DNA of 64,000 nucleotides from Candidatus Woesearchaeota archaeon (GTDB lineage Archaea; Nanobdellota; Nanobdellia; SCGC-AAA011-G17; GW2011-AR18). Under the pieces are notes generated by a model that was given only the letters and a program-made list of their open reading frames with translations, did not search any database and was not told the DNA's origin. This document shows, piece by piece, positions 1,993 through 12,077 of this stretch (the stretch's first letter is position 1; the number at the start of each line of letters is the position of its first letter). Position numbers and translations under genes: made by a program. The stretch is taken from positions 4,463 to 68,462 of the forward strand of contig CAYSFG010000035.1 in NCBI GenBank assembly GCA_964430545.1, given 5' to 3'.

Positions 1993-3753
1993 ATGGTTTT
2001 TTCATTATTAAATATACTAGGTTTATTTGGGTTATTATCATTAATACCTTTAATTATTTTATATTTAATAAAACCAAAACCTGATGTGCTAAAAGTTCCA
2101 TCATTAATGTTTTTTATGCAGAAAACAAAATCATCTAGAATACAATCATTATTTAGATATTTTGAAAGAGAATTATTATTTTTTTTACAATTATTAGTAT
2201 TATTATTACTATCATTAAGTTTGGCACAACCAATATTTACAATAAATAAAGATGCTATTTCAAACAATATTGTTTTTTTATTAGACACAAGTGCAAGTTC
2301 AAATGTTATAGAAGTTAATGGACAAACAAGATTAGAAATATCTAAGAATAAAATAAAAGAATTAGCAACAAACAGGAATTCATTAATATTAATAAAATCA
2401 ATTCCAACATTAGCATTAAAAAATGTAGGAAAATCAGAATTATTAAGATATTTAGATAAAATAAAAAGCACAGATGATTTAAGCGATATATCTTCCAGTA
2501 TAATTGCTGCAAGCGAACTAATAACAGAAGGAAAAGGAAGAATAATAGTTTTAAGTGATATGCACACAAGTAAAGGCATTTCCATAGAAACGGCAAGAAA
2601 TATAATTGAAGGAAAGGGAATACATGTTGATTTAATAAATACTGCATCTTATAATAGAAAAAATATAGGAATAATAAATTTATTAATAACAGAAGATAGT
2701 GCTAATTTATATATAAAAAATTATAATAAGAATCTAGAAAATGTTCAATTAAAAATAGGAAATAATCAAAAGATATTACAAATAAAACCAGGAAATACAG
2801 AACCTTATGTCTTTAAGTATAATGAAGGTGTAACTGAAATAAAAATAGAAAATAAAGATGATTTTAGCAATGATAATAAAGTGTATTTAGTAAAACCTTA
2901 TAATGAAACTGTAAAAGTATTATATATCAGCAATAGTCCTTCTAAATATATAAGTGCAGTATTAAATTCTATACCTGGATTAAAAATAACGTATTCAGAA
3001 CCTCCAATAATATCAAAAAATGATTATGATATATATATAATAAATAATATTGATTATAAAAATATACTTGCTGGAACATTAAATGAAATAAAAGAAAAAA
3101 TGGATAAAGGAAAAATAATTATTTTAACAGCACAATATGATTTAAATAAGTTAGACACAGGGTCATTAATAGGTAAATTTGATAATTTAAAAGATGGTGG
3201 AGAAATTAAAACAAATTTTGCAAGTACATTTACAAAAGATGTAGAATTCGGATATGTAAAGAAATATTATCCTATAAAAGAATTTAAAGGACAACAAATA
3301 GCTGTTGTAGAAAATGATACAATTATAGGAATAGATGAAAATCATGGAAAACTATTTTATTATGGATTGATAGATACTGAAAATGATTTTAAACTAAATC
3401 CAAGTTATCCTGTATTTTGGAATTCAATTATATCTTATTTATTAGGCAGATCAACAATAAATGAATTAAATTTACATACAGGGAATTATTTTTATATAGC
3501 AAATGAAAGTATATTATTGGATAAATCTGGTGTGTTTGATTTTGGAAAAAATAAGATAGCTGTAAATTTATTAAATGAAGAAGAATCAAATATTAATATT
3601 ATAACTAATGTTGGGGAAGTTAATAAAATAGATTCTAAACTTGAAAGCATAAAAACAAATGTTGATTATAAATTAGAATTTTATTTAATATTAATTGCAT
3701 TATTATTAATAGCTTTTGAGTTTTATTATATAAAAAGAAGAGGGGAATTATGA
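1993..3753 (+). CDS. BatA-like membrane protein with N-terminal double-TM 'aerotolerance' domain and a vWA domain
   Basis: N-terminus 'LLSLIPLIILYLIKPKP...RIQSLFRY' resembles the BatA N-terminal domain. vWA MIDAS-type motif 'VFLLDTSASS' (DxSxS). A C-terminal TM helix is followed by 'IKRRGE'. Confidence 0.6.
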   Translation: MVFSLLNILGLFGLLSLIPLIILYLIKPKPDVLKVPSLMFFMQKTKSSRIQSLFRYFERELLFFLQLLVLLLLSLSLAQPIFTINKDAISNNIVFLLDTSASSNVIEVNGQTRLEISKNKIKELATNRNSLILIKSIPTLALKNVGKSELLRYLDKIKSTDDLSDISSSIIAASELITEGKGRIIVLSDMHTSKGISIETARNIIEGKGIHVDLINTASYNRKNIGIINLLITEDSANLYIKNYNKNLENVQLKIGNNQKILQIKPGNTEPYVFKYNEGVTEIKIENKDDFSNDNKVYLVKPYNETVKVLYISNSPSKYISAVLNSIPGLKITYSEPPIISKNDYDIYIINNIDYKNILAGTLNEIKEKMDKGKIIILTAQYDLNKLDTGSLIGKFDNLKDGGEIKTNFASTFTKDVEFGYVKKYYPIKEFKGQQIAVVENDTIIGIDENHGKLFYYGLIDTENDFKLNPSYPVFWNSIISYLLGRSTINELNLHTGNYFYIANESILLDKSGVFDFGKNKIAVNLLNEEESNINIITNVGEVNKIDSKLESIKTNVDYKLEFYLILIALLLIAFEFYYIKRRGEL

Positions 3754-6131
3754 TATTAAATATAAATATAATTGATATAGCTTATAACTATTTTGAAAGA
3801 CCTTATGTTTTATTTATCTATTTATTTATTTTTATTGTATTAATATATTTAATTAATAAAAATTTTGTAGAATTGTCATTAGAAAATATAAAAAAAAGTA
3901 AATCTAAAAGATTATTTATATTCATATCAAGGGCTTTAGTATTTTTATTATTAATAATAGCATTAGCAGGACCTTTTATAGAAAAATCTAAAACAATACA
4001 TGGAGAACCCAGAATAAAAATATTAGTGGATAATTCAACATCTATGCAATTATATGACTTAAAAATAGCTGATAAACTTAAAATAGCATTAGAAAATAAA
4101 ATACCAACAGAAATAGAATATATTACATTTGGCGATAAATCGGCGATAGCAGATGCATTAATGGCAAATGTTAAAAAAAATGAAAATATATTATTAATAA
4201 GTGATGGAAATAATAATGTTGGAATTGAATTAGGTGACGTTGTTTTAAGAGCAAATGCATTAAATGCAACAATAAATGCTATAAAATTAAAATCGAAAAA
4301 TTATGATACTTCAATAAGTATTGCCGGAAGTGACAAGACAATAGCTGATGTAGAAAATACTTTTAAAGTAAGAATACAACAAACAGAAAAAAAACCACTA
4401 AGAGTAATAGTAGATGTAGATGGACAACAAATAATAAATAAAATTACAGATAAAGATTTTGATTTTAAACAAACTTTTATTTCCGGATATCATAAAATAA
4501 CTGCTAAAATAGATAATGTTGATTACTTTCCAGAAAATAGTGTTTATTATAAAACAATAAAAGTAGTGCCAAAACCTAAAATATTAATTATTGGAAAAGA
4601 AACTGATGAAATAGAAACATTGTTTAAACCAATATATGATGTTGTTATTATGGATAATATACCTGAAAATCTTAAAGACTATACTTCTTTAGTTATAGAT
4701 AATATTGACGCAAATGATTTAAATGATAAAACACATCAAATATCAAACTTTGTTGCAGAAGGAAATGGATTATTTGTTATTGGTGGTGGTAATTCTTTTG
4801 ATTCTGGAAATTATAAGGGCTCAAGATTTGAACAAATATTGCCAGCTTATGTGGCAAAAGCAGGAAAGAAAAGAGGAGAAACAAATATTGTATTTGTAAT
4901 AGATATAAGTGGAAGTACAGGACATAAATTTGGAGAATCAGTAAAAGTAGATGTAGAAAAAGCACTTGCAGTAGATATGATACAAAATTTAAGTTTAATA
5001 AATAATGTAGGTGCAGTAGCATTTAATACTTTAAGTTATAAACTTTCAGATATACAACCTTTAATATTAAATAAAAATAAAATGTTAGATATTATATCAA
5101 GATTAAAATATGATGGCGGTACATCTATAGGCCAGGGATTAGGGGCAGCTCTTGAAATGTTACAAGATAAAGGCGGAAGCAAGGACATAATTTTAATATC
5201 AGATGGAAAAAATCAAGATTTTGATGAAGCAAGAAATGCTGCAACTGTAGCTGGAAGTAAGGGAATAAGAATATATTCAGTAGGCGTAGGAGAAGATACA
5301 TATAAAGAAAATATGCAATGGTTTGCTGATATCACAGGAGGAACTTATTTTGAACCTGATTCTACAGATAGAATAAGAGTATTATTTGGAAATACACAAA
5401 GCGTAGGTAATAAAAAAATATTTCCTTTAGTTGTAATTGATAAACACCATTTTATAACAAATGAATTTAATCCAAAAGCAAGTCTCTATGGATATAACCA
5501 AATTGTACCAAGCAGCAGTGGAAAAGTATTAATAACAACAGATATTGGTGACCCTATATTAATTACAGGAAGATTAGGTCTTGGGAGAATAGTAGTATTA
5601 GCAACAGACTACAAACTTTATGGATTTGAATTATTAAACAAAGATAATTCATTATTAACAACAAGAACAATGAACTGGATAATAGGAGATCCAGAAAGAA
5701 AAAATGAAAAATATATAAATATACCTGATACAAGAGAAGATGAAGATGCTCAAATAACTATAAGATCAGAAGAACAACCAGTCTCAGATAATATAGCATT
5801 ATATAAAATAGATAATAAGTTGTATATGGGCAGTATAAGAATTGAAAAAAGAGGTTTTAATAGTGCATTAGGCGCAATATTTGCAGTAAACTATAAAAGA
5901 GAATATCAAAATATAATTATAAACCCTGAACTTGAAGAAATAGTAAAATCTACAAATGGAAGGATGTTTGAAGATAATCAAGTTGATGAAATAGTTGAAT
6001 ATGTTAAACAAAGATCTAATAGAGAGGAATTAAAAAAAGTTAATTATGCATGGATATTTGCTATGATTGCTTTAATAATTTATTTAACAGAAGTATGTAT
6101 AAGAAGAATAGCAAAAAATAAAAATTTATAA
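3750..6131 (+). CDS. membrane-anchored protein with two vWA domains (Bat-like)
   Basis: Two MIDAS motifs, 'ILVDNSTSM' and 'VFVIDISGSTG'. N- and C-terminal TM segments. The ATGA overlap with the upstream gene indicates an operon. Confidence 0.6.
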   Translation: MILNINIIDIAYNYFERPYVLFIYLFIFIVLIYLINKNFVELSLENIKKSKSKRLFIFISRALVFLLLIIALAGPFIEKSKTIHGEPRIKILVDNSTSMQLYDLKIADKLKIALENKIPTEIEYITFGDKSAIADALMANVKKNENILLISDGNNNVGIELGDVVLRANALNATINAIKLKSKNYDTSISIAGSDKTIADVENTFKVRIQQTEKKPLRVIVDVDGQQIINKITDKDFDFKQTFISGYHKITAKIDNVDYFPENSVYYKTIKVVPKPKILIIGKETDEIETLFKPIYDVVIMDNIPENLKDYTSLVIDNIDANDLNDKTHQISNFVAEGNGLFVIGGGNSFDSGNYKGSRFEQILPAYVAKAGKKRGETNIVFVIDISGSTGHKFGESVKVDVEKALAVDMIQNLSLINNVGAVAFNTLSYKLSDIQPLILNKNKMLDIISRLKYDGGTSIGQGLGAALEMLQDKGGSKDIILISDGKNQDFDEARNAATVAGSKGIRIYSVGVGEDTYKENMQWFADITGGTYFEPDSTDRIRVLFGNTQSVGNKKIFPLVVIDKHHFITNEFNPKASLYGYNQIVPSSSGKVLITTDIGDPILITGRLGLGRIVVLATDYKLYGFELLNKDNSLLTTRTMNWIIGDPERKNEKYINIPDTREDEDAQITIRSEEQPVSDNIALYKIDNKLYMGSIRIEKRGFNSALGAIFAVNYKREYQNIIINPELEEIVKSTNGRMFEDNQVDEIVEYVKQRSNREELKKVNYAWIFAMIALIIYLTEVCIRRIAKNKNL

Positions 6132-6153
6132 ACTTTAAAAATGATATAATAAC

Positions 6154-6630
6154 ATGGGATTCATAGACTATAATGCAAATTTGGGATTATTTATACTGAT
6201 AATATTAATATCAGGAATAGCAATAGGACTTACTGTATTTTATCAAGCAAATTTTAAAGATATAAATTATAAATATGATACTAAAATAAGTGAATTAAAT
6301 AAAACATTTGAAAAATTATTAGGAACACAAGATGTATTAAACAAAACAAAAGAAGAACTAGATCTAAAAGCAAAAAGAGAAGAAGATTTATCAGGAAAAT
6401 ATACATCAACAAAAGAACAAAAAGAAAGACTACAAACAGAAAATTCAGGATTATCAAAAGATTTAGCAAACACAAGATCACAAGTTGATATACTTAAAGC
6501 ACAGATAGACCAATTAAATTTGAATATAGTTAGTTTACAAACAACAATATCAGATTTAACAAGCCAAAAAAATAATCTAAATACTATAGTAAACTGCTAC
6601 AGGAGTGCAGCACCAAATGCAAATTGTTGA
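6154..6630 (+). CDS. membrane-anchored coiled-coil protein
   Basis: N-terminal TM helix followed by a long heptad-like stretch rich in E/K/L/Q; lies in the Bat-like operon. Confidence 0.45.
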   Translation: MGFIDYNANLGLFILIILISGIAIGLTVFYQANFKDINYKYDTKISELNKTFEKLLGTQDVLNKTKEELDLKAKREEDLSGKYTSTKEQKERLQTENSGLSKDLANTRSQVDILKAQIDQLNLNIVSLQTTISDLTSQKNNLNTIVNCYRSAAPNANC

Positions 6631-7393
6631 AAAAGCATTAAGAGAAATAAAACTTATGATTTATATATTTGATATTGGCAATTTACTACTTAATACATTT
6701 ATAATATTTATGATAATTTTAATATTTACAATATTATTTAATTTTAAATGGTATTTTGCTTTACTAAGTTTAGTATATTTAATATATTTTATTATAAGAG
6801 AAATTAAAAAAAATAAATATTATATTGTAGAAAATAAAGTAAGAGATTTAAGAGAAAGATTAACAACAGTAGCTGATAATTTGTATAAAACTAATCCTAT
6901 AGTTGATTCTTTAAAAGAAGATGTTGTAAAAGATATAAAAAAAATCAAAACATCTTATTTTATAGATTATAATACATTAACCAGCAGATTGATAATATTT
7001 GGATCATTAACTTTTATTGTTGTATTATTAGCTTTTTTAAGTGTGAAATTTGATTTTCAGGGATTTAAACTACCAGAAGTTAATATTGTTACAAATAGAG
7101 GATTTATTAATCAAACAGAAAATTTAAAATTTAGCTTGTCAGAAGGTAACTTAACTGATATATTAGGAAATAAATCAATAGCTGAATTAGGAAAAAAAGA
7201 ATTAAAATTAACAATAAACCCATTAGAAAGTGATACTAATTTAAATGTTATAAAACAAACTCAAAAAGAAGACTTTAATAGCCCAGATTTTCCAAAAGAA
7301 ATATATACAAGATATGATAGATCATATCAAGAAAAAATAGCTAAAGAAAACCAGAAAATAGTTAAAGATTATTTTGAAAAAATAACAAGGTGA
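6605..7393 (+). CDS. membrane protein (hypothetical, Bat-operon member)
   Basis: Several hydrophobic segments; overlaps the upstream gene; same strand and operon as MoxR. Confidence 0.4.
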   Translation: MQHQMQIVEKALREIKLMIYIFDIGNLLLNTFIIFMIILIFTILFNFKWYFALLSLVYLIYFIIREIKKNKYYIVENKVRDLRERLTTVADNLYKTNPIVDSLKEDVVKDIKKIKTSYFIDYNTLTSRLIIFGSLTFIVVLLAFLSVKFDFQGFKLPEVNIVTNRGFINQTENLKFSLSEGNLTDILGNKSIAELGKKELKLTINPLESDTNLNVIKQTQKEDFNSPDFPKEIYTRYDRSYQEKIAKENQKIVKDYFEKITR

Positions 7394-7397
7394 AAAA

Positions 7398-9722
7398 ATG
7401 GTAAGTATGGAAGAAATACAAAAAAAATTTAAATTGATAAACTCTGAAGTTTCTAAAGTTGTAATTGGACAGGATAAAGTTGTTGAACAATTATTAGTAG
7501 CATTATTATGTAATGGGCATGTTTATTTAGAAGGATATCCGGGATTAGCAAAAACATTATTAGTAAAAACAATATCAAATATAATGGATTTAAAATTCTC
7601 AAGAATACAAGGTACACCAGACTTATTACCTAGTGATGTAACTGGAACTTATATAATAGATGAAAGCAAAGGAAAAAAAGAGTTTAAATTTCAACCAGGA
7701 CCAATATTTGCAAATATAATATTATTAGATGAAGTTAATAGAGCCACCCCTAAGACCCATTCATCAATATTAGAAGCAATGCAAGAAAGACAAGTAACTG
7801 TAGGAAATGCAACATATAAATTAGAAGAACCGTTCTTTGTATTAGCAACTGGAAATCCTATTGAGCAAGAAGGAAGCTTAACATTAGATCAATCAGTTTT
7901 TATAAATGGAGAATTAAAAACAGGACATGAATTATTAGAACAAGTTAAAAATAATAATACCCAAATATTAAAAAATGGAGATTTTGATTTATATAAACTT
8001 GAAGATTCATATACATATTCTTTAAATTCTAATGGAAAACTTAAGAAAAGTGAATGTTATCTTTATACTTTGCCTTATGATGATGAAATTATAAAGGTAA
8101 AAACTAGAATTGGAAGAGAAATTAAAGTTTCTAAAAATCATCCTTTTTTAATAAATGAAAAAGGAGAAATAAAATGGAAGAAAGCAGAAGAACTAATTGA
8201 AGGAGATTATTTAGTTACACCGGCAGCATTAAATGATGAGTATCATACAGAAGAAGTAGTTTCACATTTAGGTATATTAAATGAATTAAATAAAAAGTAT
8301 AAAATAATAAAATATGAAGAATATTTAAAATTAAAAGAACATAAAGAAATAAGCTTACCATCTTGGATATTAAATTTAAACTCTGAACTAAGAAAAGAAT
8401 TTTTGAAAACATTTATTTCATTAGAAGGATGCATAAGAGATAATATGATAAAAGTTTCACAAGCAAATAAAAATAACATTAATATTTTATCTTATTTATT
8501 ATTAAAAGAGGGTATAATTTCATTGTTTTTTGAAAAGAAGAAAAAAAATCATAGTGATTATGTAATAAAAATACAAGGAGAAGACTTTTTAAAATATTTA
8601 TTAAATATAGGATGGCTAAACGAAGAAACAAGAATTGAATGGTTAAATAGAGCAAAAAATGGAAAATTTTCATCTTTCAGAGTAATACCTACACCAAGAA
8701 ATCTTGTATTAAGACTTGTAAATTTATTAGGAATAAATTTAGTTCATACATACAAAAATCGAAAAAACTTTGTTAATAGGGAATGGTATTGTGGATATAA
8801 ATCTATAAAAGAAGGAAGAGAAAATATTTCCTTAGATATGTTTAAATTAATGCTTAATGGAATGGAAAAGGAGATAAATCTTAGAAATAATGTTGATTTA
8901 AATAATATTTCTAAGTCAAAAGATATAAAAAATACGGCGATTTTATGTGGCTTATCTATTAAAGATATTGAAACAAATATTAACATACCTTTTAATAAAA
9001 TTTCTAATTATTATGAAAATAATAATAGCAAACATTCACAACAAATAATAACTTGTGTTAAAAATGAATTTTTAAACAGACTCGAAGAAGCAAAATCTAT
9101 ATTAAACTATTTAAAAAAATTAGCAACAGAAGAAGTGTTATATGACAAAATAGAAAAATTATCTTATGAACCATATAATGGATTAATATTTGGATTGACA
9201 GTTCCAGGATTGCAGAATTATATTGGAGGTTATGGTGCTTGTGGTATTAATCATAATACTTTTAAATTATCAGAGGCACAAGTTGATAGATTTTTATTTA
9301 AAATAAATGTAGAATATCCTAAAATAGAAGAAGAATTAGAAATAGTTAGTAAATACAGTGAAATAACACCAGCTGAGATAAAAATAAAAACAGTATTTAC
9401 AAGTGAAGAATTAATAAAACTACAATCTTATGCAAAACAAATACCTATAGCAAAAGATATATTAAAATATGCTGTAGATTTAGTTGTTAGTACAAGAAAT
9501 AATAAACAATTAATTGAATATGGGGCAAGTCCAAGAGCTAGCATATCTTTAATAATGGCTGGAAAAGCAAGAGCATTAATTAATGGAAGAAAATATGTAA
9601 GTAAAGATGATATTAATGTAATGGCCTTACCTGTATTAAGACACAGAATAATAATCAGCTTTGAAGCAGAAAGACAAAATATGACAGAAGACGATGTGAT
9701 AACTAAATTAATTAAGAAATAA
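7398..9722 (+). CDS. MoxR-family AAA+ ATPase interrupted by an intein
   Basis: Walker A 'GYPGLAKT'. The extein junctions rejoin to '...ATGNPIEQEG|TFKLSEAQVDRF...', which resembles the conserved MoxR block NPIEQEGTYPLPEAQLDRF. The protein is 774 aa against about 310-320 aa expected for MoxR. Confidence 0.85.
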   Translation: MVSMEEIQKKFKLINSEVSKVVIGQDKVVEQLLVALLCNGHVYLEGYPGLAKTLLVKTISNIMDLKFSRIQGTPDLLPSDVTGTYIIDESKGKKEFKFQPGPIFANIILLDEVNRATPKTHSSILEAMQERQVTVGNATYKLEEPFFVLATGNPIEQEGSLTLDQSVFINGELKTGHELLEQVKNNNTQILKNGDFDLYKLEDSYTYSLNSNGKLKKSECYLYTLPYDDEIIKVKTRIGREIKVSKNHPFLINEKGEIKWKKAEELIEGDYLVTPAALNDEYHTEEVVSHLGILNELNKKYKIIKYEEYLKLKEHKEISLPSWILNLNSELRKEFLKTFISLEGCIRDNMIKVSQANKNNINILSYLLLKEGIISLFFEKKKKNHSDYVIKIQGEDFLKYLLNIGWLNEETRIEWLNRAKNGKFSSFRVIPTPRNLVLRLVNLLGINLVHTYKNRKNFVNREWYCGYKSIKEGRENISLDMFKLMLNGMEKEINLRNNVDLNNISKSKDIKNTAILCGLSIKDIETNINIPFNKISNYYENNNSKHSQQIITCVKNEFLNRLEEAKSILNYLKKLATEEVLYDKIEKLSYEPYNGLIFGLTVPGLQNYIGGYGACGINHNTFKLSEAQVDRFLFKINVEYPKIEEELEIVSKYSEITPAEIKIKTVFTSEELIKLQSYAKQIPIAKDILKYAVDLVVSTRNNKQLIEYGASPRASISLIMAGKARALINGRKYVSKDDINVMALPVLRHRIIISFEAERQNMTEDDVITKLIKK
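7875..9257 (+). mobile_element. intein (461 aa) with probable LAGLIDADG-type homing endonuclease domain inside the MoxR ATPase
   Basis: Block A 'SLTLDQSVFINGE' begins immediately after EQEG. Block B-like 'KVSKNHPFL'. Endonuclease-like 'FLKTFISLEGCI'. C-terminal 'GINHN' is followed by Thr (+1). Removing the insert restores a contiguous MoxR. Confidence 0.75.
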
Positions 9723-9731
9723 ATTCAGTCT

Positions 9732-10583
9732 ATGGTAATACAAACAGATTTTCTAAGACAATTGGATAAATTTAACTTAGTAATACATAAAAAAGTAGCA
9801 TCAGGTTTTATTGGCGATAGAAGAGCAAATTTTACAGGATCAGGATTAATATTTAAAGATTATTCAACTTATGTACCAGGAGATGATTTTAAACATATAG
9901 ATTGGCTAGTTTATGGGAAGACAGATAAATTATATGTGAAAAGATATGAAGAAGATAGAAACTTAACAATACATATATTATTAGATATAAGTGGAAGCAT
10001 GAATTTTGGAACTAAAATTAAAAAATATGAATTTGGGAGTATGATAGCATTAGGATTTAGTTATATAGCAATGAAAAATAATGAAAAATTTGTATTAAGT
10101 ACATTTGATGATAAATTAGAATTTTTTAAACCAAAAAAAGGAGCAAGACAATTAGCTGCAATATTAAATTATTTAAATAGTAAAACAGCAAAGGGAATAA
10201 GCAGCTTTGAGCAATCATTAATTAGTTATAAAAGTTTAGTAAACTCAAGAGCAATGATTATAATAATATCAGATTTTTTTTATGATATAGAACAAATAAA
10301 GACAATATTACATAAGTATAAGAATAATAAAATAAAATTAATACAGGTTTTAGATTCAGTAGAAAAAAAAATGAATTTAGATGGAGAATATAATTTAGTT
10401 GATCTTGAAAGTGATAATAAAATGCATACTTATATAGATCCATTAGTAAGACAAGAATATTTAAAAAGATTAGAAGAACATAATACTAAAATAATAAATT
10501 CTTGTGCTGAAGTTAAAGCAGACTTTTATACTGTTAATAATGAAGAAAACATATTTGATGTATTTTATAGAATATTAAATTAA
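9732..10583 (+). CDS. DUF58 family protein (vWA-like, MoxR partner)
   Basis: 'YVPGDDFKHIDWLVYGKTDKLYVKRYEEDRNLTIHILLDISGSM' matches the DUF58 signature; lies immediately downstream of MoxR. Confidence 0.75.
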   Translation: MVIQTDFLRQLDKFNLVIHKKVASGFIGDRRANFTGSGLIFKDYSTYVPGDDFKHIDWLVYGKTDKLYVKRYEEDRNLTIHILLDISGSMNFGTKIKKYEFGSMIALGFSYIAMKNNEKFVLSTFDDKLEFFKPKKGARQLAAILNYLNSKTAKGISSFEQSLISYKSLVNSRAMIIIISDFFYDIEQIKTILHKYKNNKIKLIQVLDSVEKKMNLDGEYNLVDLESDNKMHTYIDPLVRQEYLKRLEEHNTKIINSCAEVKADFYTVNNEENIFDVFYRILN

Positions 10584-12077
10584 ATAAATATTATCTAAAT
10601 CTTCTTTAATTACATAATCCAGTTTATATTTATCTTCTGCGTAAATTTTAAATAAAATCTCTCTTTTTATAACTTTATCATTTACTTTTTTATACAAATA
10701 AATTCCCGCCCCTTTATCATAAGGAGCTCCAGCTATTTTTGCAATTTTGGAAACTAAACGATTACTAATAATTTTAATTCTACCAGATTTTTTAGATTTA
10801 TAATCAAAAGTGTATTTACCTAAACTTATATCTTCAGGTTTAATATTTGGATTGCCACCTTGAGCTTTAATAATTTCCTGCATTTTTTTATAAGCCAGAC
10901 CAGACTCTAATATTTCACTAGCTTTTTTACCACCATTTTTTACTCCAACCATTTCTAATAATAATCCTGCCATATAAACTGATTTTTTTGATAAATCTTC
11001 AGGACCATTATTTTGCAAAACTTTTAAAACATCAATCGCTTCAAGAGCGGGACCAACACCATTACCAATAGGTTGATCTCCATTTGTTATTATTACTTTA
11101 ATTTTAAGATTAAGTTTTTTACCAAGAATAATAAATTTTTTTGATAAATCTTCTGCTTTTTTTATAGATTTAAATTTAGCTTCACGACCAATAGGAATGT
11201 CAATTAAAACATGAGTAGAACCTGCGGATAATTTTTTAGCTAATATAGATGCTAATAAAAAACCTTCTGGATCAATATTTAATACTTTTTCTAATTTAAT
11301 TAATTTATCATCGGCAGAAGCCAAATCTAAAGCACCCCCCCAAACCATACAACCATTAGTTTTATTTACTATTTCCATAATTTTGTCTTTAGAAAAAGAA
11401 ACAGGAGCTAATACTTCTACACAATCTGAAGTTCCTGCGGGAGATGTAATAGACCTAGTAGAAGTTTTTGGAATTATAAAACCTGCTGCTGCAATAATAG
11501 GAACTACAATCATAGTTGTTCTGTTGTTGGGAATTCCACCTATTGAATGTTTATCTGCAATAATTTTTTTATTAAACTTTAATTTGCCACTATTATTAAC
11601 AATTGCTTTAGTTAAATATGCAGATTCGTTTAATGTCATACCATTAATGTAACAAGCAGAAACAAAATAAGTAGCTTCAACTTCTGTTAATATATTTGAT
11701 AATAAATCTTTTATAATTTGATCAATCTCTTTTTCATTTAATTCATTATTATCTAACTTCTTTTTAATATAATCTAAAGATTTTGGTATTTGAGTAGGAA
11801 AAACTTCTATAATTTCATTATCTTTTAAACTTAATTCATCAGCAACATCTATGAAAACACCTATTTCTCCCTGTTCTATCCCTTTTTTTCCTAAAGCTTC
11901 ATCTACAGAAATTATTAAACTTTTTTTATTTTTTATTTCTATCCTGTCTAAAGGTTTAATTCCTAAATCATTAATATCTTTTTCATTTAATATACCAATA
12001 AATGGTCCTTTTGTTGCTATTTGTAATATCTTAATTTTAAGTTTCAATTTTATTACCACCAAAATTAAAATAATCAT
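10575..12077 (-). CDS. deoA: AMP phosphorylase / thymidine phosphorylase family (archaeal-type, about 500 aa)
   Basis: Glycosyl-transferase family 3 motifs 'KHSIGGIPNNRTTMIVVPIIAAAGFIIPKTSTRSITSPAGTSD'; length typical of archaeal AMP phosphorylase. The true start is probably the TTG at about 12047 ('LKLKIKILQ...'), which would remove the overlap with the upstream gene. Confidence 0.8.
   Translation of the reverse strand: MIILILVVIKLKLKIKILQIATKGPFIGILNEKDINDLGIKPLDRIEIKNKKSLIISVDEALGKKGIEQGEIGVFIDVADELSLKDNEIIEVFPTQIPKSLDYIKKKLDNNELNEKEIDQIIKDLLSNILTEVEATYFVSACYINGMTLNESAYLTKAIVNNSGKLKFNKKIIADKHSIGGIPNNRTTMIVVPIIAAAGFIIPKTSTRSITSPAGTSDCVEVLAPVSFSKDKIMEIVNKTNGCMVWGGALDLASADDKLIKLEKVLNIDPEGFLLASILAKKLSAGSTHVLIDIPIGREAKFKSIKKAEDLSKKFIILGKKLNLKIKVIITNGDQPIGNGVGPALEAIDVLKVLQNNGPEDLSKKSVYMAGLLLEMVGVKNGGKKASEILESGLAYKKMQEIIKAQGGNPNIKPEDISLGKYTFDYKSKKSGRIKIISNRLVSKIAKIAGAPYDKGAGIYLYKKVNDKVIKREILFKIYAEDKYKLDYVIKEDLDNIYLI

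Follow-up and report, generated by a model that had tools for sequence, protein, structure and literature searches.

Inteins are biased toward the conserved motifs of ATPases (PMC4760082), and in archaeal MCM/CDC21 proteins the sites occupied are the P-loop (site a) together with further MCM-specific positions, not the post-sensor-1 loop (PMC10643990, PMC4760082). A survey of halobacterial inteins recorded 13 intein-invaded genes, and the portions of its text covered by a term search named no ATPase or AAA exteins (PMC4071816). Here we analyze an intein in a gene for a MoxR AAA+ ATPase, located in a stretch of 64,000 nucleotides (hereafter the window) from a Candidatus Woesearchaeota archaeon (contig CAYSFG010000035.1 of assembly GCA_964430545.1, positions 4,463 to 68,462 of the forward strand). 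We consider it very likely that this intein is still competent for splicing, that its homing endonuclease has decayed through a deletion of 174 amino acids (aa) and that it is immobile. Our literature searches with the terms MoxR, DPANN and Woesearchaeota and the methanol dehydrogenase regulator names found no description of a MoxR intein in the library searched, where three papers mention both words in unrelated contexts, and neither the MoxR host nor the post-sensor-1 insertion site has apparently been described in the literature before. Relatives of the element are already public under the machine annotations ‘LAGLIDADG family homing endonuclease’ or ‘AAA family ATPase’. MoxR is a chaperone-type AAA+ host and not a replication protein, and its occupation extends the known intein hosts and sites. 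The mechanism and structure, on the other hand, are standard for a class-1 intein with a LAGLIDADG-type insert and are unsurprising to intein specialists.

The initial annotation of the window had reported a MoxR open reading frame (ORF) of 774 aa containing a 461-aa insert at nucleotides 7875-9257, and on re-reading both sizes and coordinates were exact. The identical 774-aa protein is present in NCBI and Logan assemblies. Pfam assigns an AAA_3 domain to aa 41-165 (E = 6e-53) and an AAA_lid_2 domain to aa 702-770 (E = 3e-20), flanking the insert, which opens with SLTLDQSVFINGE after NPIEQEG and closes with GINHN before TFKLSEAQVDRF. The Ser start, GINHN end and following Thr proposed as its boundaries are thus exact, and both Ser1 and the HN-T junction are invariant in the 17 same-site inteins described below. 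A comparison with hidden Markov models, which had been suggested as a check on the intein call, agrees with it: Pfam Intein_splicing matches the insert with E = 1e-18 and 68 bits (cut-off 35.8), well above what chance would give. The only other domain found there, LAGLIDADG_3, occurs once, at intein residues 173-246 including FLKTFISLEGCI (E = 8e-6, 26.5 bits, cut-off 22.5). The matches of the insert to sequences in the PDB are almost only inteins (PabCDC21-1, PhoCDC21-1, TFIIB mini-inteins, PI-PkoII, RadA, KlbA, DnaB and VMA), with alignments that span blocks A-B and block F. An AlphaFold2 (AF2) model of the intein, built with 18 homologues as input, has a mean predicted local distance difference test score (pLDDT) of 81.2 and a predicted template modelling score of 0.78, and when Foldseek compares it with solved structures, the TliVMA intein (E = 5e-14) ranks first, ahead of PI-PfuI (2e-12) and PI-PkoII (2e-11). 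Mini-inteins by the dozen and the Hedgehog autoprocessing domain come next, and more than 30 solved inteins match at probability 1.00. The residues associated with splicing are all present, namely Ser1, block B VSKNHPF with S86 and H89, block F IFGLTVPGLQNY, the H460-N461 pair and Thr+1. The block-B TxxH signature reads S86-K-N-H89 in the window copy and mostly T-K-N-H in relatives, with Ser also in one of them (P0026). Judged by these motifs, profile matches and the modelled fold, the insert is a class-1 intein of the HINT superfamily. It is not a naturally split intein, as its ORF is contiguous, and a class 3 assignment (no N-terminal nucleophile, a Trp-Cys-Thr triad with its Cys at position F:4) is contradicted by the invariant Ser1 and by a Gly at F:4. 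We also considered a special role for an invariant Cys at position -6; related inteins in aIF2-gamma-like GTPases have Ile or Leu there in a by-eye alignment, and the Cys is probably a core residue.

Removal of the insert restores a normal MoxR protein. The host had been expected to measure about 315 aa and to regain the conserved MoxR segment in which NPIEQEG is joined to TFKLSEAQVDRF. The excised product indeed has 313 aa, and it aligns without a gap over 313/313 residues to P0168, an intein-free MoxR with 79% identity. Residues 8-313 of the spliced protein also align to a solved MoxR structure (2R44, E = 7e-79), where the junction reads NPVEQEGTYPLPEAQVDRF. The 120 best database homologues of the exteins are all 310-317 aa long and lack an intein domain (120/120), and the named ones among them are MoxR ATPases of Woesearchaeota or Nanoarchaeia; the comparison of site occupancy proposed with the first description therefore gives 120 empty best homologues beside about 39 database proteins with the same-site junction. 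P0168 lies in a locus (L005) whose gene order is that of the window: BatA/VWA, VWA, a 156-aa gene, DUF7502, MoxR, DUF58 and, on the opposite strand, an AMP-phosphorylase-like gene. P0168 is thus a syntenic empty-site allele, and its DNA runs uninterrupted from AATCCTATTGAACAAGAAGGA into ACATTTGTTCTT (also given as GCGACGATGAATCCTATTGAACAAGAAGGA followed by ACATTTGTTCTTAGCGAAGCACAAGTAGAT). The nearest allele that does carry the intein, P0019, shares 77% identity with the window extein. This near equality of the extein's distance from empty and occupied alleles points to a sporadic distribution, as expected for a mobile intein.

The insertion point falls within the conserved ATPase core. The motifs of MoxR-type proteins follow the order Walker A, pore loop, helix-2 insert, Walker B, pre-sensor-1 hairpin, sensor 1, post-sensor-1 loop, arginine finger and sensor 2 (PMC13036017), and the second region of homology, as described for CoxD, comprises sensor 1 (Asn) and one or more arginine fingers at the end of alpha-4 (PMC3471820). 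In the window protein the intein follows G159 in the post-sensor-1 loop, 6 residues past sensor 1 (N153) and 11 ahead of the arginine finger, a location consistent with the known preference of inteins for ATPase motifs (PMC4760082). NorQ's post-sensor-1 loop lines the pore and touches its VWA partner (PMC13036017). Since the intein splits this loop, the unspliced precursor should be inactive as an ATPase. The initial annotation had likewise placed the insert in a conserved block and made activity dependent on splicing; the location between sensor 1 and arginine finger bears out the former and, as far as sequence can indicate, supports the latter. The host itself has the features of a MoxR protein, that is, an AAA_3 core and AAA lid, Walker A and B motifs, sensor 1 and arginine finger, with a DUF58 gene downstream and a VWA gene upstream. 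Near-invariant residues of the C-extein in the homologue alignment are E626, A627, Q628, D630, R631 and F632. A DUF58 gene also follows MoxR in L005 and in a second syntenic locus, L003, and the downstream DUF58/VWA product is the presumed cochaperone partner of MoxR.

Comparison with longer relatives revealed what the endonuclease region of the window intein has lost. Full-length relatives (P0003, P0005, P0019, P0020 and the genes of loci L002 and L003) have two LAGLIDADG motifs, for example FAFWIAFLLSDGSIGEK and FLRTFISLESS, and in the longest of them a helix-turn-helix (HTH)-like module precedes the first motif. The closest of these, P0019, carries a 631-aa intein whose aligned parts are 49-74% identical to the window copy. 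BLASTP and global alignment resolve the two proteins into two collinear blocks, in which window residues 1-314 correspond to P0019 residues 1-314 and window residues 315-774 to P0019 residues 489-944. One block of 174 aa (P0019 315-488), containing the HTH-like module and motif 1 (IAFFLAFILSDGG), is therefore absent from the window, and the same gap appears against L003 (tblastn) and in a multiple alignment of the relatives. Identity to P0019 is 68% in the N-terminal splicing domain, 67% in the LAGLIDADG half, 53% in the HTH region and 49% around the deletion scar. The AF2 model contains exactly one alpha-beta-beta-alpha-beta-beta-alpha unit (helix 170-184, strands 185-188 and 191-196, helix 199-211, strands 217-222 and 227-234, and helix 235-244), the first helix of which ends in L-E-G, and its confidence is low across the scar (intein residues 121-160). 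Thus the two motifs and two halves of a complete LAGLIDADG enzyme are not present, there being one Pfam LAGLIDADG_3 match and one modelled unit. An acidic residue at the helix end, E183, is kept in the retained FISLEG and is Glu in relatives too; the corresponding residue of motif 1 was lost with that motif. The homing-endonuclease-like core claimed in the initial annotation accordingly stands as a LAGLIDADG_3 match, but it amounts to half an enzyme, and the several LAGLIDADG-like segments reduce to a single motif, the ancestral first one having been deleted.

Behind the LAGLIDADG half lies a helical region in which the AF2 model shows a three-helix HTH at residues 351-381. Intein residues 242-421 have no Pfam HTH match, and relatives give weak sub-threshold HTH matches at the homologous position; the JGI name of one, P0011, is ‘intein/homing endonuclease/DNA-binding XRE family’. 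From the modelled helices and the sequence pattern, this region is presumably a former DNA-recognition module of the endonuclease. Among the sequences retrieved the 174-aa deletion is unique to the window copy. Other relatives bear different deletions, with 452-aa and 544-aa forms lacking part of the C-terminal HTH region and 302-aa and 325-aa forms lacking more, a pattern consistent with repeated, independent decay toward mini-inteins. Because a monomeric intein endonuclease needs both halves, the window endonuclease is probably inactive and the intein no longer mobile.

We searched for relatives with intein-only queries, using both a word-indexed search and an exhaustive HMMER scan of 1.84 billion cluster representatives. 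The former returned 17 relatives of the intein and the latter 356 matches at E ≤ 0.001, 14 of them at E ≤ 1e-30. About 39 of the retrieved proteins contain the upstream junction NP(I/V/T)(E/D)xxG followed by S and/or the downstream junction HN followed by T(Y/F)xL(P/S)EAQ, and 17, the window intein included, contain both. These 17 inteins measure 192, 193, 197, 302, 325, 452, 461 (window), 507, 522 (three inteins), 523, 544, 589, 593, 619 and 631 aa. Invariant in 17/17 are S1-L2, the block-B H-P, the C-terminal pattern GL.VP…NY..G.G.CG..HN and Thr+1, while the block-B flanking N and F-L are conserved in at least 80% of them. As the mini-inteins sit in otherwise complete MoxR genes, the simplest reading of these shared features is a splicing-competent family. 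Where a source is named, it is Woesearchaeota, Nanoarchaeota, ‘Euryarchaeota archaeon’ or, for a single contig, Komeilibacteria, a bacterium of the candidate phyla radiation. The protein with this last label (P0008, 521 aa, on a 5.3-kb contig) represents either a mis-binned archaeal contig or a cross-domain occurrence.

Several members of this family, and some of its distant relatives, deserve separate mention. The closest syntenic relative is L003 (GCA_018302485.1, JAGVZP010000027.1), from a Woesearchaeota metagenome-assembled genome, which is syntenic with window positions 3750-12077 and at its positions 5001-7804 has the same MoxR intein in full-length form (∼621 aa). A frameshift near L003 5870-5880 leaves its gene as two ORFs of 296 aa and 529 aa, and reflects either an assembly error or a pseudogenised allele. 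In L002 (GCA_038046685.1, 3455-5968) and in P0002, P0007 and P0011, the called start is a Met inside the intein at residue ∼25-40. The L002 reading frame is open through the called start back to the true MoxR start, and these internal starts appear to be a systematic error of gene calling by which the N-extein is concealed. We considered whether the relatives that begin at residue ∼25-40 (P0002, P0006, P0007, P0011), or those that end or start inside the intein (P0012, P0013, P0014 and P0015), might be split inteins, but rejected this: the L002 frame continues upstream of its called start, the break in L003 is a frameshift and P0014 lies near a contig end. Two further sequences depart from the junction consensus: P0037 (248 aa), which begins inside the intein, has Pro at +1 (GINHN followed by PFRLSEAQ), and P0044 has Lys in place of the penultimate His (GINKN followed by T). 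Both are possible splicing-defective alleles, judging by these residues. The distant matches are inteins in other hosts, including aIF2-gamma-like GTPases (P0032 and P0041) with a similar endonuclease module. Those inteins follow GHVD(S/H)GK and have Cys1 and Thr+1, and their HTH, two LAGLIDADG motifs and second HTH are 25-26% identical to the endonuclease region of the window intein, which suggests an endonuclease lineage common to different host genes (MoxR and aIF2-gamma-like).

The coordinates of the features are collected in Table 1. The MoxR gene belongs to a conserved operon (window 3750-10583) that encodes a 793-aa VWA protein, a 158-aa coiled-coil-like protein, a 262-aa DUF7502-like protein (a weak match), MoxR and a DUF58/VWA protein. 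This operon is co-linear with L003 and L005, the 793-aa gene being two ORFs in L005. Overlaps between adjacent ORFs range from a few bases up to 26 nt (6605-6630; 10575-10583, the latter on opposite strands). When the 77 stop-to-stop ORFs of 100 aa or more were compared by phmmer with the intein and the extein, this gene alone matched, and no further intein or second MoxR came to light in the window. ARAGORN found no tRNA gene in the 64-kb window, and no Rfam family reached the gathering threshold there. Neither scan thus supplied a direct taxonomic marker; on the sequence side, the names of homologues and the synteny with the Woesearchaeota genome of L003 indicate the taxonomy. The guanine-plus-cytosine (GC) content is 23.4% for the window, 22.6% for the intein and 27.5% for the exteins.

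Table 1. Features of the intein-bearing MoxR gene and its 3' neighbour, in window positions.
Feature	Position	Strand	Basis or remark
MoxR AAA+ ATPase precursor ORF with intein	7398-9722	+	774 aa plus stop; ORF list, Pfam
N-extein, aa 1-159	7398-7874	+	motif coordinates; alignment to solved MoxR structure 2R44
Walker A GYPGLAKT	7533-7556	+	G46-T53 of precursor
Walker B region IILLDEVNR	7716-7742	+	I107-R115 of precursor
Pre-sensor-1 hairpin	7791-7838	+	
Sensor 1 N153 in VLATGNP	7839-7859	+	
IEQEG, end of N-extein	7860-7874	+	
Intein, Ser1 to Asn461	7875-9257	+	461 aa; precursor aa 160-620
N-terminal splicing (HINT) subdomain, intein residues 1-120	7875-8234	+	HMMER alignment to PabCDC21-1 intein; beta-rich AF2 model
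Block A SLTLDQSVFINGE	7875-7913	+	
Block B GREIKVSKNHPFLI with S86, H89	8112-8153	+	
Deletion scar YEEYLKLKE-HKEISLPSW	8313-8366	+	junction nt 8339/8340, intein residues 155/156
Single LAGLIDADG half-domain, intein residues 163-246	8361-8612	+	Pfam LAGLIDADG_3, AF2 secondary structure
LAGLIDADG motif EFLKTFISLEGCIRDN with conserved acidic E183	8397-8444	+	aligns to second motif (FISLESS) of relatives
Helical region with HTH, intein residues 247-418	8613-9128	+	AF2 helices
HTH TAILCGLSIKDIETNINIPFNKISNYY	8934-9014	+	AF2 helices 351-357, 362-369, 373-381
C-terminal splicing subdomain, intein residues 419-461	9129-9257	+	Pfam Intein_splicing to profile position 155/155
Block F LIFGLTVPGLQNYIGG	9183-9230	+	HMMER alignment to PabCDC21-1 block F
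Block G YGACGINHN with H460, N461	9231-9257	+	
C-extein, aa 621-774 plus stop	9258-9722	+	AAA lid domain after VDRF
Thr+1 (T621)	9258-9260	+	
Arginine finger R631 in VDRF	9288-9290	+	R170 after splicing
DUF58/VWA-domain gene directly 3' of MoxR, not part of intein	9732-10583	+	Pfam DUF58 E = 5e-35, VWA_2

We propose the following course of events for the window gene, drawing its chemical steps from the canonical splicing pathway and the conserved residues. The 774-aa precursor would be translated and a HINT fold would assemble from intein residues 1-120 and 419-461. Ser1 would then undergo an N-to-O acyl shift at the Gly159-Ser160 bond, Thr+1 (T621) would attack the resulting ester, cyclisation of Asn461 assisted by His460 would free the intein, and an O-to-N shift would join NPIEQEG to TFKLSEAQVDRF and yield an active 313-aa MoxR working with the neighbouring DUF58/VWA proteins. 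As comparison with the full-length relatives shows, the ancestor was a mobile intein of ∼620-630 aa with an endonuclease laid out as HTH, LAGLIDADG-1, LAGLIDADG-2 and helical/HTH region, and in the window lineage a single 174-aa deletion took out the HTH-like module and LAGLIDADG-1. The endonuclease would as a consequence have ceased to function, and the element would persist only since MoxR production still requires splicing. It would then represent an intermediate stage of the homing cycle, heading toward the 192-197-aa mini-inteins found at the same site. Splicing has probably been retained, given that the ORF is intact, the splicing residues are invariant in the 17 same-site inteins, the exteins are 77-79% identical to relatives and the window has no second MoxR.

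Some observations weigh against this explanation, and most of them would also fit an intein that has lost splicing and persists as a decaying relic, leaving MoxR a pseudogene or a permanently interrupted ATPase. Block F is recognisable but not canonical: the Gly at F:4 is invariant in the family where PabCDC21-1 has Asp (IFGLTVPGLQNY in the window against VYDLQVPGYHNF), and Gln replaces the usual block-F His in the window copy, the family having Q, H or K at this position. An Asp at F:4 is common among class-1 inteins but not universal. The spacer between blocks F and G is 3 residues longer than in PabCDC21-1 (and 1 residue longer than in the related aIF2-gamma inteins, by manual count), and the block-B Thr is replaced, conservatively, by Ser. 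The last ∼12 intein residues, up to the C-terminal splice junction, have low AF2 confidence in the isolated intein and the precursor alike, the model of the 774-aa precursor having a pLDDT of 83 overall and below 50 at residues 616-620. A deletion of this size within the insert could disturb folding. Broken relatives also exist, including P0037, Pro at +1 having been reported to block splicing (PMC10643990), and the closest syntenic relative, L003, whose intein is frameshifted; such alleles can be dead, or assemblies err. However, all the nucleophiles (S1, N461 and T+1) are in place, every AAA+ motif of the conserved exteins is intact, and the 2.3-kb ORF is uninterrupted at 23% GC, where stop codons arise easily. 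The gene is moreover the sole MoxR in a conserved BatA/VWA/DUF58 operon. The oddities of blocks F and G are invariant in the 17 same-site inteins, which reside in intact genes and include the mini-inteins, and we regard them on that account as family characteristics; in the window they fall at 9195-9257 (intein residues 441-461) and comprise the F:4 Gly, a Cys six residues ahead of the C-terminal Asn and an F-to-G spacer rich in Gly (17/17). Loss of splicing therefore appears unlikely to us. Still less can be said for an ordinary inserted domain, or a non-splicing HINT or bacterial-intein-like module kept in the mature protein, which we regard as extremely improbable. The insert splits the second region of homology (PMC3471820) between sensor 1 and the arginine finger, shows the intein blocks (A, B, F and G), a terminal HN and a +1 nucleophile, and is missing from the site in the 120 closest homologues. 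Its size ranges over 192-631 aa while the junction stays fixed, behaviour typical of inteins but not of functional domains.

The immobility of the element can be questioned on different grounds. The retained LAGLIDADG half is conserved relative to P0019 at 67%, on a par with the splicing domain (68%), and residual function is conceivable. Its acidic residue (LEG) is preserved, the complete alpha-beta-beta-alpha-beta-beta-alpha fold is modelled with good pLDDT, and some LAGLIDADG enzymes with a single motif are known to work as homodimers. The intein might thus splice and remain mobile through an active homodimer of the I-CreI type, helped by its HTH region. All larger relatives, in contrast, carry two motifs in one chain, hence an asymmetric recognition of the site; the empty-site DNA is not palindromic, the HTH-like module was lost in the deletion too, and no other database sequence has the 461-aa form, so that there is no sign of spread. 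We accordingly give this possibility little credence. We have also entertained a more speculative and rather improbable idea, namely that the MoxR-site inteins form a mechanistically distinct subgroup whose slow or conditional splicing might gate the MoxR-VWA chaperone system in DPANN archaea. It arises from the combination of two oxygen nucleophiles (Ser1 and Thr+1), the Gly in place of a coordinating Asp at F:4 and the extended Gly-rich spacer with its invariant Cys. If it were true, the retained half-LAGLIDADG/HTH region might serve splicing support or DNA binding instead of homing. Independently of this, the 192-197-aa mini versions could be useful as redox-insensitive splicing tools. A splicing-competent intein with a decayed endonuclease remains our preferred explanation. 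On that explanation, the series of sizes from 631 down to 192 aa at one junction, along with syntenic empty sites, provides a compact natural example of the endonuclease decay cycle in uncultured DPANN archaea. For annotation, the gene should read MoxR ATPase with intein, and several public gene calls among the relatives begin within the intein or are interrupted there. The Ser1/Thr+1 mini-inteins of the MoxR-site family may also interest protein engineers.

Among described systems, the window intein most resembles in structure the archaeal class-1 LAGLIDADG inteins PI-PfuI, PI-PkoII and TliVMA/PhoVMA (Foldseek E = 5e-14 to 2e-10). It shares with them a HINT domain split by an endonuclease, a site within a nucleotide-binding motif that is conserved in an ATPase or polymerase, an N-terminal nucleophile, the block-B His, a terminal HN and a +1 nucleophile. 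It differs from them in its MoxR host, its post-sensor-1 location, its oxygen nucleophiles Ser1 and Thr+1, the Gly at F:4 and the possession of only one LAGLIDADG half, and full-length MoxR-site relatives have extra HTH modules beside the endonuclease core. In sequence, the N-terminal splicing domain is matched best by the MCM inteins PabCDC21-1 and PhoCDC21-1 (E = 5e-9), whose host likewise has a clade-7-type AAA+ ATPase core. The solved structures of these two are mini-inteins, and their block F, unlike that of the window intein, has the canonical Asp and His. Degenerate LAGLIDADG-plus-HTH proteins such as WhiA also combine a LAGLIDADG-derived fold with a C-terminal HTH. Their structural matches to the model are weak (3hyi at probability 0.97 and 8dy9 at 0.77), and the relation we claim goes no further than the fold; WhiA, a transcription factor that stands on its own, has two LAGLIDADG halves, both degenerate, whereas the window protein has one half embedded in an intein. 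A last group comprises the same-site MoxR inteins of Woesearchaeota and Nanoarchaeota from public metagenome assemblies (P0002-P0029 and others), which share the insertion point, Ser1, HN and Thr+1 with 34-66% intein identity and range from the full 631-aa to the 192-aa mini forms, the window copy alone having the 174-aa deletion.

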